IMG/VR virus record: IMGVR_UViG_2565956711_000012
DNA length: 29,461 nucleotides
Strand: one strand, 5' to 3'
Origin: a virus
Lineage: Duplodnaviria; Heunggongvirae; Uroviricota; Caudoviricetes
Program-made: the position numbers and the translations under genes
Shown: positions 25,486 to 29,461 of the stretch, piece after piece
How the letters are laid out: each line of letters begins with the position of its first letter
Numbering within the stretch: the first letter of the stretch is position 1
Notes under the pieces: model-generated
The model's database searches: none
Told to the model about the DNA's origin: nothing
The model's input: the letters and a program-made list of their open reading frames with translations, nothing else

Positions 25486-26424
25486 TTATTCCTCGTTCAG
25501 ATTGCTGTGACCCAGTTCCAGCATCGCAGACTGGATGTGTGACGTACCGATGGTCTCACCCTTGCCCTGTGCATAAATCCCCGCCAGCGGAAGGATGTGA
25601 GACAGAGAACGGAGAGCGCCGGGACGACGGGCGATCATCTTCAACAGTTTCCGTTCCTCCTGTCCGCTGACCTGCCAGGCATCACAAAAACTGTCCACAT
25701 CTCCGGCTGATACGGTATTGATGACGTATTTTTTAGAGACGCGGGAGAACAGACGGGCGAAGTCCACACTGCGTTGTCCACCTGTCAGGCGGTCGTAGAC
25801 TTTATGGTTTCCGACCAGCGCCAGACCAACACCGCATTCCTCCTGGAGAATACGCAATTCTTCTACGGCATCCAGACTCAGCCAGTCAGCTTCATCCACA
25901 ACAATCAGACCACGCGTATCCGGCAGGCGCTGGCGTAACAGACGGGACAAAGCACCGCGACGATATGGCGCGTCAGCAATCCCCATTTTCAGTGCCAGTT
26001 CGTAAAGCGTTTCCAGTTCGTTGCTGCGGGACTTGCTGGCGGTGATATGCCAGACATTGTTGCCAGTCGCGGCATACTGTCTGATGGCTTTTGTTTTACC
26101 GACGCCGGGATTGCCGTATACCAGTACAATCGTTCCGGCCAGTTGCGCCCACGTCAGGGTGGCGAGAATTTTTTGTGAGGTCGGTGTTTCAACGAAATCC
26201 GGAGCCACGGGCAACGAGGTTTTTGCGGCGTTGTGGCTTTCCAGCCAGGTATTCAGGCTGGCGGCAACCGTATCGTTATCGCCCTTGTATTTCCCGTTAA
26301 GAAACTGAGAGACCGTAGCCGTTGAGGTGCCGGTTTCACGCGCCAGAGCTGCGCCTGAAATAGCTTTGCTGTCAATTAGTTCACGAATGGCACTACGCAC
26401 AACATCATGGTTAATTTGCGTCAT
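25486..26424 (-). CDS. B: transposition ATPase / target DNA activator MuB
   Basis: Walker A GNPGVGKT; N-terminal HTH region; start placed at the internal ATG (MTQINHDVV...) giving about 312 aa, since the ORF-track start at 26448 is a TTG. Confidence 0.85.
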   Translation of the reverse strand: MTQINHDVVRSAIRELIDSKAISGAALARETGTSTATVSQFLNGKYKGDNDTVAASLNTWLESHNAAKTSLPVAPDFVETPTSQKILATLTWAQLAGTIVLVYGNPGVGKTKAIRQYAATGNNVWHITASKSRSNELETLYELALKMGIADAPYRRGALSRLLRQRLPDTRGLIVVDEADWLSLDAVEELRILQEECGVGLALVGNHKVYDRLTGGQRSVDFARLFSRVSKKYVINTVSAGDVDSFCDAWQVSGQEERKLLKMIARRPGALRSLSHILPLAGIYAQGKGETIGTSHIQSAMLELGHSNLNEE

Positions 26425-26492
26425 GATTATTAATCCTGTATTTTTCAAATGGCCTGTACTTAATCAGGTGTTAAAACTGATTCACTTAATTC

Positions 26493-26520: not shown

Positions 26521-28505
26521 TATTTCTGCGACTGTTTCGCTTTATTAACGAACGTCTGAAAAATCACATCATTCTCGGTTTGCGTGTCCTGCATTTCCTC
26601 CACGCGTCTGACGGTATTACCCATATTGAATACGCGCTCAACAACATGACGTTCTGGCAACTCCGTATGTTCTGTCTTCGGTAGCAGGTCGTTAACTTCA
26701 ATCGCTGTCATGCGGTTTAGTGCCTTCGCTGCTTTCTTCGTGCTGCGCATCATTTCACGACGGGCGCGGTTGTGTTCCCGACCAGCCTCGGTATCACCAA
26801 ACGCCACTGCGGCGCGACACTCCGCCATACAGAGGAAGCGGCCATCAAGGTCGTAACAGGCCACTTCACTGTGAAGGTTGCGCGGATCAAAACGGACTGT
26901 AATTTTGCGTGAGCGATGGCTGACAAGTTGCTCACTCCAGTAGGTGTTCTTGCGGCCAAACAGGGTGCCGCCGCTTTCCATCGTGAATTCTCCGGTTGGT
27001 TTCACGCGAACCGACTCTGCCGGCAGCATGAACTGGCGGATTTGTTCTTCAGTTAAACGGGTGATCACAGCCTGGCTGTAGCTTTGTTCGAAAGCCTGAT
27101 CAAAGGACAATTCCCCCCGGCACATTTCCGTTTTACGCTGGGTCTTCCTGTTAAACATGGCGACACCTTCACTGATAATTTCCATAAAGGTCTCAACATC
27201 AACGGCGCGGCTGCCGTAGTTCTCCGGTTTTGAACTGACGTTTTCACCGGCAAATGCACCAGCCAGTGCCGGGTGTTTATCTATGTATTCACCCAGACCA
27301 CCCACACCAAAGGCACGTTCTACGGGTTTAGCCTGGCCCCAGCCTTTACCACCGATAACGCCAGTCCAGTGCAGCTTGATACCCAGCAGAGGGATGATCC
27401 CCATCGGGTCATCTTCACGGACTTTGAACCGATAGCGGTTAGGAACGCCACCAGACAACCATTTGTTCGCCGCTGCACGGGTGTTGTCTATCGTGATGTG
27501 TTGTGGTTTCCCGTAGGTTTTCAGTGTATCCATGAGTGACAGGCGGATACTGTCGCTGTTTTCTGATACATCAGCCCGCCAGCCGACAATTTTGCGGCTG
27601 TGGACGTCCTGCCAGAACCATGTTTTAGGGCGGATGATTTCACCGTTAAACCAGCGGACAAACACGTTGTGCTGATAACCGTCACCGTTAATCCATTCCA
27701 TCGCATGCAACTGCGCGACGGTGCGCTGTTGAGATGGATGCATCTGCGCTAGGGCGTTTTCACCTTCACGGGTGGCAACGACAATACGCGGATCAACTTC
27801 ACGTTCCAGCTTACGACGCAGGGTACGTTCAGCCGGTATGGTCCAGCCATGTGTTTCTGCGGCGATTTCCAGCCGTTCATAGCATTTGGAGAAAAACGGT
27901 GCTTCGTTGCGCAGGTAATCGCCCAGGAAGAATTGCCAGGCATCATCAGAAATTTCAGCCGAACGTCCCGTAACGCGTTTTTCACGAACCCGGCGATCGA
28001 GCAGTACCGGTCCCCAGAGATCAGGGCTGAAGTCCTTCACTTTGTAGTACAGATTGCGCAGCGTTCCTTCACTGATTTGAAGTTGCTTGGCAGCAAGGGT
28101 AATAGCTTTGCGGTTGCCAACACCTGATGCCATCAGCTCAGCCACCAGCGCGGCAGCTTTCGTGCGACGCTCTGCATGCAGTCGCTGTTCGCCTGTTGCT
28201 TTCTCCCAGGCTGACCAGAGACGCTGACGATCAAGGTCGTCAGCAGCCACACGTTCAGGCTCTTGCGGCAAAGTAATGAGTCCGGATGAGGTTTCAATCA
28301 AACCACGAGTTGCCAGCAATTCAGCCCGAACTTCTGGTGGCAATACTGATATGTGGTATTCAAATGCTTTGGTGCCGGCACGTTTGCGGCGTAGCTCACT
28401 GCGACCGCAAACCAGATCCTCAAGTTTTTTCCGTGCATTAGACTCAGCCTGTGGGAAACCACAGACGCCAACGCATTCTTTCACTGATACCCAAAACTCC
28501 ATCAT
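26520..28505 (-). CDS. A: DDE transposase MuA
   Basis: 661-aa ORF; N-terminal winged-helix domain paralogous to repressor c; long stretches (HAMEWINGDGYQHNVFVRWFNGEIIRPKTWFWQDV; GKGWGQAKPVERAFGVGGL) match MuA as I recall it; 4-bp overlap with ner. Confidence 0.9.
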   Translation of the reverse strand: MMEFWVSVKECVGVCGFPQAESNARKKLEDLVCGRSELRRKRAGTKAFEYHISVLPPEVRAELLATRGLIETSSGLITLPQEPERVAADDLDRQRLWSAWEKATGEQRLHAERRTKAAALVAELMASGVGNRKAITLAAKQLQISEGTLRNLYYKVKDFSPDLWGPVLLDRRVREKRVTGRSAEISDDAWQFFLGDYLRNEAPFFSKCYERLEIAAETHGWTIPAERTLRRKLEREVDPRIVVATREGENALAQMHPSQQRTVAQLHAMEWINGDGYQHNVFVRWFNGEIIRPKTWFWQDVHSRKIVGWRADVSENSDSIRLSLMDTLKTYGKPQHITIDNTRAAANKWLSGGVPNRYRFKVREDDPMGIIPLLGIKLHWTGVIGGKGWGQAKPVERAFGVGGLGEYIDKHPALAGAFAGENVSSKPENYGSRAVDVETFMEIISEGVAMFNRKTQRKTEMCRGELSFDQAFEQSYSQAVITRLTEEQIRQFMLPAESVRVKPTGEFTMESGGTLFGRKNTYWSEQLVSHRSRKITVRFDPRNLHSEVACYDLDGRFLCMAECRAAVAFGDTEAGREHNRARREMMRSTKKAAKALNRMTAIEVNDLLPKTEHTELPERHVVERVFNMGNTVRRVEEMQDTQTENDVIFQTFVNKAKQSQK

Positions 28506-28738
28506 GCAACCTCTTTAACAGTCAGATTCTGATAACGCGAAGGCCATATCTCTGATGGCTCCATGTTGAGAAAGTCAGCGATAATTTTCTCCCCTTTGGG
28601 CCAGTGGTGACGGAATACGTTACGTAATGTTGATTCCGCTAGCCCATGACAACGGGATAACTGACTGGTCGTCATTCCGCGTTTTCTAATCGCTGCTTTG
28701 ATGTCTTCAGGGTGCCAGTCTTGGCTTTTGGTCATCAT
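28502..28738 (-). CDS. ner: Ner DNA-binding early regulator
   Basis: 78-aa ORF; DWHPEDIKAAIRKRGMTTSQLSR...HWPKGEKIIADFLNMEPSEIWPSRY matches the Ner family; AAGGA 9 nt upstream of ATG. Confidence 0.8.
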   Translation of the reverse strand: MMTKSQDWHPEDIKAAIRKRGMTTSQLSRCHGLAESTLRNVFRHHWPKGEKIIADFLNMEPSEIWPSRYQNLTVKEVA

Positions 28739-28969
28739 TCTGCGATCCTTAAATATTTACTCGTTGCGGTGAACTAAACTGCTCACCTTTACGTGTAAAA
28801 ATATAGCACACAAAAAATCGAATTCAATCTTTTTGTCAGTCTTTTGTCGGTTTAATCAAATCTAAATAAATCGAATTTAAGTCTTTGATTTTTGTGAAAG
28901 CATGTTTTTACACCATAAAAAATCGAATCGAATTTTTTGTGAGCCAGAAAAAATCGGAAACAGGAGGTA
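28739..28969. promoter_or_regulatory. early operator / divergent promoter region between ner and c (Mu O1-O3 and enhancer equivalent)
   Basis: 231-bp AT-rich non-coding region with two repeat families: AAAAATCGAAT (about 28812, 28866, 28918 and a degenerate copy near 28950) and CTTTTTGT(C/G) (about 28829, 28840, 28888, 28933). Confidence 0.6.
28798..28829 (-). promoter_or_regulatory. candidate sigma-70 early promoter (Pe) driving ner-A-B
   Basis: On the minus strand: TTGAAT, 16-nt spacer, TATATT, placed about 60 nt upstream of the ner ATG. Confidence 0.4.
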
Positions 28970-29461
28970 ATGATGAATGAGCAAACTTGGTTTACGGCTC
29001 AAGAGTGTGCGGGGATGCCCGGATTCCCAAGTGGAGTATCCAATGTACGTAAGCAGTTAGAAAAACTCGCAGAAGGGTTGGACGGAGTGCGGCGGAAACG
29101 AGGAGGGACTAAAGCCACGGAATACCATATATCGATATTGCCTGCACGGACCCAAAATTATCTTGGGTATAGCAACAAAGGACAGCCATCTATGGGAGTT
29201 GAGGATTTCAAGACAAAAAGTGGCTTAGCAAATGATGAGAAGCAAGCACTCTGGATGATGATTTATCAGGGGATGACTGAAGCCCAACGTGAAGCTGTCA
29301 TGGAGATATTTATCACTGGTGGCTTAAAGATGCTTATGCCTGCGGTGCTTGAGTTATCTGATTCAAATCCGGTCCGACAGAAAGAGATTTTCGGACAATG
29401 TGATTCCATTGAAAAGGATAGCCCAGCGTCGAACGTAAGCACGCAAAACAAGGCTGGCTGA
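28970..29461 (+). CDS. c: repressor c (Mu Repc-like)
   Basis: 163-aa ORF divergent from ner; strong AGGAGG SD 5 nt upstream; N-terminal 60 aa are clearly paralogous to the MuA N-terminus (WxxxxECxGxPGFPxxxSNxRKxLExLxxGxxxxRRKRxGTKAxEYHISxLP). Confidence 0.7.
   Translation: MMNEQTWFTAQECAGMPGFPSGVSNVRKQLEKLAEGLDGVRRKRGGTKATEYHISILPARTQNYLGYSNKGQPSMGVEDFKTKSGLANDEKQALWMMIYQGMTEAQREAVMEIFITGGLKMLMPAVLELSDSNPVRQKEIFGQCDSIEKDSPASNVSTQNKAG

Follow-up and report, generated by a model that had tools for sequence, protein, structure and literature searches.

Paralogy between the repressor and the transposase of transposable phages was published for Mu and D108; the precedents are Harshey et al. 1985 (PMC391396) and Mizuuchi, Weisberg and Mizuuchi 1986 (cited in PMC3820752). 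One and the same stretch of Mu DNA serves as enhancer and as operators O1–O2 and is labelled O/E (PMC3820752). Paralogy that couples immunity to transposition control is known and is encoded in Pfam PF02316, and the locus described here, an ordinary further example of a textbook arrangement known since 1985–86, adds no new biological principle. The present result secures an immunity-region annotation for an uncharacterised Mu-like prophage of 32 kb that sits in narX, interrupting the gene, in a clinical E. coli isolate. The annotation comprises the repressor with its likely start and real stop, candidate operators/enhancer, a candidate IHF site and a Pe-like early promoter.

The prophage and its left end

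The window (the whole stretch of 29,461 bp that was analysed) is most of a Mu-like transposable prophage. A blastn search against a phage collection gave no close relative, with only ~70% identity to Mu, SfMu and D108, within the transposase core. Through an E. coli genome collection the window was matched, at 100% identity, to a Mu-like prophage of 31,978 bp that lies in narX of E. coli ECONIH5. Its termini are TG...CA, and on either side stands GCCGT, a 5-bp target duplication within narX; both features are the mark of a MuA-family transposase, and the element is therefore a transposable phage. A left end at ...CCATACA (L001:7335), proposed from its resemblance to Mu ends, was ruled out by comparing both junctions; the true left end lies 16 bp further out (L001:7351), where the GCCGT duplication restores narX.

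The coordinates of the features are presented in Table 1. The control region at the left end has the classical layout of Mu, with c reading towards the phage end and ner–A–B in the opposite direction from a Pe-like promoter. A Mu arrangement had been proposed in the initial annotation, and c is found divergent from ner–A–B and adjoining the left end of the TG...CA element, which is the position of a Mu-type repressor. The stop of ner overlaps the start of A. Concerning A, the domain series that defines the MuA family is complete (I-alpha, I-beta, I-gamma, II with the catalytic DDE core, and III). The Pfam matches are DDE_2 (7e-111), HTH_Tnp_Mu_2, Mu-transpos_C and HTH_Tnp_Mu_1, and the PDB matches follow in order: 1TNS (residues 2–76), 2EZK (86–176), 2EZH (182–252) and 1BCM (256–578), together with 4FCY (87–609).

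Table 1. Features of the prophage left-end region, with positions in the window.
Feature	Position	Strand	Basis or remark
B, MuB-type AAA+ transposition ATPase	25486..26448	-	PF09077 Phage-MuB_C 5.8e-22; AAA_22
A, MuA-type DDE transposase, 661 aa	26520..28505	-	Pfam and PDB matches; 52% identical to MuA
A residues 5–56, I-alpha (enhancer-binding) block paralogous to c	28338..28493	-	BLASTP, Pfam and PDB match
ner-like early repressor, 78 aa	28502..28738	-	PF13693 HTH_35 1.4e-30; phrog_769 transcriptional repressor 2e-32
Pe-like sigma-70 promoter for ner–A–B	28800..28827	-	TTGAAT, 16 nt, TG-TATATT; consensus match only
Candidate operator S1 (CACAAAAAATCG)	28809..28820	+	Exact CANAAAAAATCG match; overlaps Pe-like -35; conserved in L087 and L089
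Candidate operator S2 (CTAAATAAATCG)	28862..28873	+	2 mismatches, weakest; poorly conserved in L089
IHF-core-like site AATCAAAGACTTA	28878..28890	-	Between candidate operator sites
Candidate operators S3 / S3'	28914-28925 / 28930-28941	+ / -	Imperfect palindrome, 28914..28941
Candidate operator S4 (CAGAAAAAATCG)	28945..28956	+	Just upstream of the c ribosome-binding site
c, immunity repressor (predicted)	28970..29461	+	ORF; PF02316; phrog_7148; D108 c match; ECONIH5 annotation
c residues 7–58, conserved winged-helix block	28988..29143	+	Whole domain ~residues 5–65
Prophage left end TGACTAGTGAC... / right end ...GCGCGGCA			Both flanked by GCCGT in narX

The domain shared by c and A, and the c–ner spacer

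The claim that c and A share a conserved N-terminal DNA-binding block was based on two quoted peptides, which are exactly those encoded (c residues 7–58 and A residues 5–56), and it is borne out by the alignment: BLASTP gives 30/52 identities and 36/52 positives without gaps (E=2e-18). PF02316 (HTH_Tnp_Mu_1) is found in both proteins, with 38.2 bits for c and 44.4 bits for A, above the gathering cut-off of 23.3 bits. The significance of the similarity, the point at which the claim was open to refutation, is high: the Smith–Waterman score of c against A is 159, compared with 33.8 ± 4.8 (maximum 60) for 1000 shuffles of c (z=26). The cores of the helix and the wing are nearly identical (SN.RK.LE.L and RRKR.GTKA.EYHIS.LP). 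At the nucleotide level the block is 56% identical, and only 10 of the 30 residues identical between c and A use the same codon. An old duplication maintained by selection follows from the third codon positions, of which 13/52 match, as expected by chance. The two N-domains are confirmed as paralogous copies of the Mu-type winged-helix domain (MuA I-alpha/Mu Rep).

A structural comparison with the Mu repressor or the MuA domain had been suggested as a check, and these are the top matches of the c model. The AF2 model of the c N-domain (pLDDT 85–93) has the order strand–helix–helix–strand–strand–helix. The top Foldseek match is 1TNS (MuA domain I-alpha; prob 1.00, TM to target 0.62) and a second independent fold search has 1QPM (Mu repressor DNA-binding domain) on top, the absolute scores being modest, as expected for a 60-residue domain within a partly disordered model. 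The profile of c homologues against the whole PDB matches only 1TNS (0.018) and 1G4D/1QPM (1G4D 0.065), and single-sequence phmmer of c against PDB sequences gives a marginal 1TNS match only (E=0.54); these matches are weak, so the domain call rests on Pfam and the fold searches. The fold predicted for c is a winged helix-turn-helix like that of 1TNS and 1QPM.

The c–ner spacer (231 bp) holds a CANAAAAAATCG cluster, the Pe-like promoter and an IHF-core match. The candidate operator motif was derived by repeat and consensus searching; exact CANAAAAAATCG matches occur three times in the window, all of them in the c–ner spacer, within 150 bp. The spacing from candidate S2 is 53 bp to S1 and 52 bp to S3. 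The only exact match of WATCAANNNNTTR in the window is that of the IHF-like site, whose TTGATT core L087 and L089 retain, and the S3/S3' block is almost invariant among the window and the same two loci. In relatives with 83% and 56% identity in c, S1, S3/S3', S4 and the IHF core stand out as conserved islands of the spacer. A sigma-70 consensus scan of 28650–29050 has the Pe-like promoter as its sole match and found no promoter for c. Judged from sequence, the candidate sites make up an operator cluster with an IHF-like site overlapping the early promoter, as for a Mu-type repressor, and they resemble the O1–IHF–O2 operator/enhancer of Mu.

We put the probability at about 85% that the paralogy comes from an old duplication, that c and A share the A-tract sites and that c masks the enhancer from A. 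By analogy, c and A would both bind the spacer sites and compete for them. Selection would keep the two N-domains alike because both must read the same DNA, the shared target being the A-tract site cluster (CANAAAAAATCG) and the IHF site in the spacer. In the lysogen, c would oligomerise via its central GGLKxLMP region and occupy these sites, which would shut off Pe and simultaneously hide the transpositional enhancer from A. Once c is lost, I-alpha of A would bind the same sites as an enhancer, leading to assembly of the transpososome.

Related loci and the repressor gene

Not all Mu-like elements have the Mu-type paralogy of repressor and transposase: of 69 MuA-family loci, 31 have it, while 37 keep I-alpha in A without a paralogous repressor and have a CI/XRE-type repressor instead. 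Cognate c–A identities elsewhere are 42% over 52 aa (Mu), 55% over 60 aa (D108) and 43% over 76 aa (L003). Cognate c–A pairs score 165.6 and random pairings 102.1 ± 7.4 (maximum of 10,000 permutations 133), in a test that cannot tell co-evolution from a linked module inherited together. When A of the window is compared with that of the heteroimmune relative L003 (CAVP776), divergence is greatest in the N-terminal 33-residue block (20/33 vs 24–33/33 elsewhere). The comparative value of the locus is modest: the paralogy is kept by selection and is not a recent conversion, it co-varies within phages, and it holds for ~45% of the sampled loci.

A sibling prophage of E. coli (L002; VREC0864) shares 95% identity over B, A and ner, and I-alpha of its A is identical. 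In its repressor an XRE/HTH_3 head is joined to a C-terminal body like that of Mu Rep, and there are three palindromic operators. A search of L002 for the AAAAATCGAAT motif showed that it has not been kept, the spacer there being without window-type sites. Since L002 combines an identical I-alpha with an HTH_3 repressor, and given the 37 loci mentioned above, a specificity shared by c and A is not obligatory. It is possible, if rather doubtful, that in this E. coli clade of Mu-like prophages the DNA-binding head of the repressor is a swappable module uncoupled from the transposase; the window and L002 would then be a natural isogenic test of the purpose of the paralogy. If L002 is functional, enhancer masking by a paralogous repressor would be dispensable, and I-alpha would be a relict unless it works with another enhancer or with none.

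These loci also bear on whether the N-domains, although paralogous, are sub-functionalised, with c binding the operators, I-alpha of A binding a distinct enhancer or being vestigial, and no direct competition between the two. The identical I-alpha of L002, without window-type sites or a paralogous repressor, and the 37 loci with I-alpha beside a CI/XRE-type repressor would agree with this, as would the 22/52 positions that differ between c and A, including residues flanking the predicted recognition helix. However, c and A hardly differ in the cores of helix and wing, the similarity has been held by selection while synonymous sites were randomised, divergence between the A proteins of heteroimmune relatives is greatest in the first 33 residues, and in Mu the enhancer and the operators coincide (PMC3820752); we consider such a division of roles unlikely.

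The likeness of the cognate N-domains (58%, vs ~30% for c to Mu c or D108 c) could also reflect a recent event, a duplication or a gene conversion of one inverted coding stretch by the other, and not long-term functional constraint. This was tested and rejected on codon-position identity, from the nucleotide, third-position and shared-codon values given above. Moreover, against the window c the best other c (that of L009) scores 178 and A of the window only 159, so the c and A domains form separate lineages, and a recent event is very improbable. The preferred reading remains that of an old duplication with masking of the enhancer by c.

Concerning the repressor gene itself, the initial annotation took the plus-strand ORF to be the repressor, 163 aa long with its stop at the window edge, and this reading holds. 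From the first ATG (28970) c has 163 aa; the PGAP start is the second ATG (28973), 5 nt after AGGAGG (28962–28967), which gives 162 aa (RefSeq WP_023277394.1) and is the likelier start. The TGA at 29459–29461 is the final triplet of the window and a real stop: in the ECONIH5 chromosome another 289 bp of non-coding prophage sequence separate it from the TG left end. Homologues in Escherichia, Citrobacter, Salmonella and Kluyvera have 160–164 aa, so c is not truncated; the C-terminal half is also conserved among them, with 55 invariant columns, and the GGLKMLMP motif is invariant. The best PHROG is phrog_7148 ('transcriptional repressor', E=4e-23, residues 1–129), followed by the transposase family phrog_310 (E=5e-16, residues 1–109). 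D108 c matches residues 7–127 (E=2e-15, 31% identity) and Mu c residues 15–127 (E=0.005, ~30% identity), the homology extending past the DNA-binding domain into the central leucine-rich oligomerisation region. Pfam gives no HTH_3 match in c, which lies outside the CI/XRE class. The comparisons support a Mu/D108-family repressor beyond the DNA-binding domain. The C-terminal tail of the Mu repressor (...VKKAV) modulates DNA binding and ClpXP degradation. The tail of c (...STQNKAG) is predicted to be disordered and is not alignable to it; S157, T158 and K161 are invariant in the homologues. A decayed transposase fragment (a pseudogene copied from the 5' part of A) or a chance ORF truncated by the window edge is hardly credible. 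The phrog_310 match and the coincidence of stop and edge might suggest it, but the best PHROG is a repressor family, the C-terminal half is alignable to c of D108 and of Mu and not to A, and the homologue lengths in four genera and the phage end after the stop refute it.

Comparison with CI/XRE-type repressors, D108 and Mu

The CI/XRE-type repressors (HTH_3 with or without Peptidase_S24; L002, L007, L011–L014) are found in the same position, divergent from ner/A, and those of L002, L007 and L018 share a Mu-Rep-like C-terminal region (GGLxxLMP ... KAG). Unlike window c, they have a DNA-binding domain unrelated to I-alpha of A, and no c–A paralogy.

The closest characterised repressor to window c is D108 c, and the c–A block of D108 is of similar strength. 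D108 also shows, as do the window and L003, divergence of c and of the A N-terminus between heteroimmune relatives. It has another DNA-binding subtype and other operators than the window; ner is common to the window, L002 and L003 but differs between D108 and Mu.

Compared with Mu, c is shorter (162–163 aa vs 196 aa), the c–A block is more alike (58% vs 42% identical), and the domain is of a sequence subtype in which the linker between helix and wing is longer (LExLxxGxxxxRKRxGTKAxEYHISxLP vs GWxKRxxxGVKGGKAxEY). The site motif CANAAAAAATCG and the c tail (...STQNKAG vs ...VKKAV) also differ, and the prophage has 32.0 kb instead of 36.7 kb. In common with Mu (Rep 1QPM/1G4D, MuA I-alpha 1TNS) are the divergent c and ner–A–B at the left end, PF02316 at the N-terminus of both proteins, the predicted winged-helix fold, a candidate operator cluster and IHF site between c and ner, the TG...CA ends with a 5-bp target duplication, and all the MuA domains in A.

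The N-terminal domain shared by c and A

The region at 28300-29160 comprises the 5' end of the transposase gene A, the Ner-like ORF, the c-ner spacer and the 5' end of c, the plus-strand ORF; the features are listed in the table. Both c and A open with the same block: an ungapped alignment pairs c residues 7-58 with residues 5-56 of A, with 30/52 residues identical and 36/52 positive (BLASTP, E=2e-18). This is exactly the alignment of the initial annotation, which had made its claim of a shared block depend on the significance of the similarity. The significance holds, as the Smith-Waterman score of 159 is far above chance (33.8 +/- 4.8, maximum 60, in 1000 shuffles of c; z=26). Looking at the nucleotides, the two blocks (156 nt each) are 56% identical, with matches at 37/52, 38/52 and 13/52 of the first, second and third codon positions, respectively, and of the 30 identical residues only 10 share their codon. 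The synonymous positions are therefore randomised; the duplication is old, and selection, not a recent conversion between the inverted copies, keeps the proteins alike.

Features of the immunity region and their coordinates in the window
Feature	Coordinates	Strand	Basis or remark
MuB-like gene	25486-26448		Pfam; next gene after A
MuA-type transposase A, 661 aa	26520-28505	-	Pfam DDE_2 (7e-111), HTH_Tnp_Mu_2, Mu-transpos_C, HTH_Tnp_Mu_1
First 33 residues of A	28407-28505	-	L003:5005-5103 in the relative L003
Ner-like protein, 78 aa	28502-28738	-	Pfam HTH_35 (1.4e-30)
c-ner spacer, 231 bp	between 28738 and 28970		
Pe-like promoter	28827-28800	-	TTGAAT, 16 nt, TG-TATATT; overlaps S1
Candidate site S1	28809		CANAAAAAATCG, exact
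Candidate site S2	28862	+	CANAAAAAATCG, 2 mismatches
IHF core match	28878-28890	-	WATCAANNNNTTR, sole exact match in the window
Candidate site S3	28914		CANAAAAAATCG, exact
Candidate site S3'	28930	-	CANAAAAAATCG, 2 mismatches
Candidate site S4	28945		CANAAAAAATCG, exact
AGGAGG	28962-28967		upstream of the c start
c, 163-aa ORF	28970-29461	+	window ends with its TGA
C-terminal tail of c	29429-29458		residues 154-163, predicted disordered

Concerning the fold, A matches solved MuA fragments of the PDB in sequence order: 1TNS (I-alpha, A residues 2-76, E=3e-5), 2EZK (I-beta), 2EZH (I-gamma), 1BCM (core) and 4FCY (transpososome). The single Pfam domain of c is HTH_Tnp_Mu_1 (PF02316; 38.2 bits, cut-off 23.3). 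The AlphaFold2 model of c, based on 12 homologues, is confident only in the N-domain (pLDDT 85-93, residues 10-60), which has the order strand-helix-helix-strand-strand-helix. Its top Foldseek match in the PDB is the winged helix of MuA I-alpha, 1TNS (probability 1.00, TM to target 0.62), and a profile of c homologues gives weak matches to 1TNS and to 1G4D/1QPM, and to nothing else in the PDB. Beyond the N-domain, c aligns to the c protein of D108 (alignment over residues 7-127, E=2e-15, including the invariant GGLKMLMP motif) and more weakly to that of Mu; the top PHROG is phrog_7148 'transcriptional repressor' (4e-23). The D108 likeness, the PHROG match and the 1TNS-like N-domain bear out the earlier reading of the plus-strand ORF as the immunity repressor, which is well supported.

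Extent of c and ends of the prophage

Over its final 3 kb the window matches the E. coli ECONIH5 chromosome (NZ_CP026202.1) at 100% identity, and RefSeq annotates c there as WP_023277394.1, a 162-aa 'DNA-binding protein' with its start at 28973 and the same TGA. The stop exactly at the window edge, as first proposed, is thus confirmed; past position 29461 come 289 non-coding bp of the phage end, followed by a truncated narX. Among 14 matches to c in a large protein collection, the full-length homologues (Escherichia, Citrobacter, Salmonella, Kluyvera) have 160-164 aa and are conserved to the last residues, so c is not cut by the window edge. The repressor is short, as the initial annotation had it. 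AGGAGG precedes two in-frame ATGs, by 2 nt at 28970 and by 5 nt at 28973, and 162 aa is more likely than the 163 aa first given, because RefSeq and several homologues start at the second.

Based on the comparison of both junctions (L001:7063-7356, L086:5090-5130), the prophage in narX of ECONIH5 has 31,978 bp and the ends 5'-TGACTAGTGAC...GCGCGGCA-3' (TG...CA), and is flanked by a 5-bp direct duplication, GCCGT, which restores narX. Such ends and such a duplication are characteristic of Mu-type transposition. The window thus falls short of the whole prophage by 289 bp on the left and 2,228 bp on the right; the latter hold a tail-fibre segment that appears to be invertible, and a Gin-like recombinase.

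Candidate DNA targets and co-variation of c with A

All three exact matches to CANAAAAAATCG in the 29.4-kb window fall within 150 bp of the spacer, and direct repeats occur there at 53- and 52-bp spacing. The match to the IHF core lies between the candidate operator sites. A simple scan detected no c promoter. In the otherwise diverging spacers of two relatives, with c 83% (L087) and 56% (L089) identical to that of the window, S1, S3/S3', S4 and the TTGATT core of the IHF match form conserved islands. This predicted anatomy parallels the Mu operator/enhancer with its IHF site (labelled O/E in a figure of PMC3820752), and because of this parallel we infer that c and the I-alpha domain of A may read the same DNA. 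By the same analogy, the two proteins would compete at the shared sites.

Cognate c-A likeness is also found in Mu (42% over 52 aa, E=4e-12), D108 (55% over 60 aa, E=4e-17) and the heteroimmune E. coli relative L003 (43% over 76 aa, E=9e-19). Scanning one genome per species with A gave 80 loci (L006-L085), 69 of them with enough upstream DNA; in 31/69, a divergent upstream ORF opens with a domain paralogous to the N-terminus of the cognate A (40-65% identity). For 28 non-redundant pairs, cognate scores average 165.6 vs 102.1 +/- 7.4 in random pairings (maximum 133 in 10,000 permutations), and the median rank of the cognate A is second of 28. This shows that c and A co-vary, which would fit both co-evolution and co-inheritance of a linked module. 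Between the window and L003, c is only 39% identical and A agrees at 20/33 of its first 33 residues, against 24-33/33 in all other 33-residue blocks of A; the N-terminus of A differs in the same pattern between Mu and D108.

In L003, the CAVP776 prophage, RefSeq has two probable start-codon errors. The repressor (L003:5446-6033), listed with 195 aa as 'MerR family', probably has its true start ~41 codons downstream, at MVDFSEW, and the transposase (L003:3121-5103) is annotated 26 codons short, with part of the I-alpha domain lost.

Loci without the paralogy and comparison with Mu

In 37/69 loci, A has the I-alpha domain but no paralogous repressor accompanies it; the candidate repressors of such loci (n=28) match HTH_3 in 26 cases and additionally Peptidase_S24 in 11. 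The sibling prophage L002 of E. coli VREC0864 (NZ_LR536431.1) is 95% identical to the window across B, A and ner and has an identical I-alpha block of A (33/33). Its repressor (L002:5340-6045) is chimeric: an HTH_3 (XRE-type) head is joined to a C-terminal body that resembles Mu Rep. The last 66 residues of this repressor share 51% identity with c, and phrog_7148 matches its residues 93-166. The L002 spacer contains three 17-bp palindromes, candidate operators TGCRAT-N5-ATTSGCA, and the A-tract motif of the window is absent from it. The ner of L002 is identical to that of the window. Given the 37 loci, Mu-like elements have at least two common solutions, of which repressor-transposase paralogy is one, and they cannot all depend on competition at a shared site.

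The finding itself is an ordinary one with little that is new, and is of use mainly for annotating the prophage immunity region. The tail of c, ...VSTQNKAG or ...STQSKKAG, is kept across genera and is also present in the repressors of L002 and of L018 (a locus from the scan), which have an HTH_3 head; it bears no resemblance to the ClpXP-related ...VKKAV of Mu and D108. The c-A paralogy is a further example of an arrangement that has long been known, already captured by Pfam and for which Harshey et al. are cited in PMC3820752. Compared with Mu, the window phage has a shorter c, a different site motif, a smaller genome and a longer linker (RKRxGTKAxEYHISxLP) in its sequence subtype of the domain; these are differences of degree.
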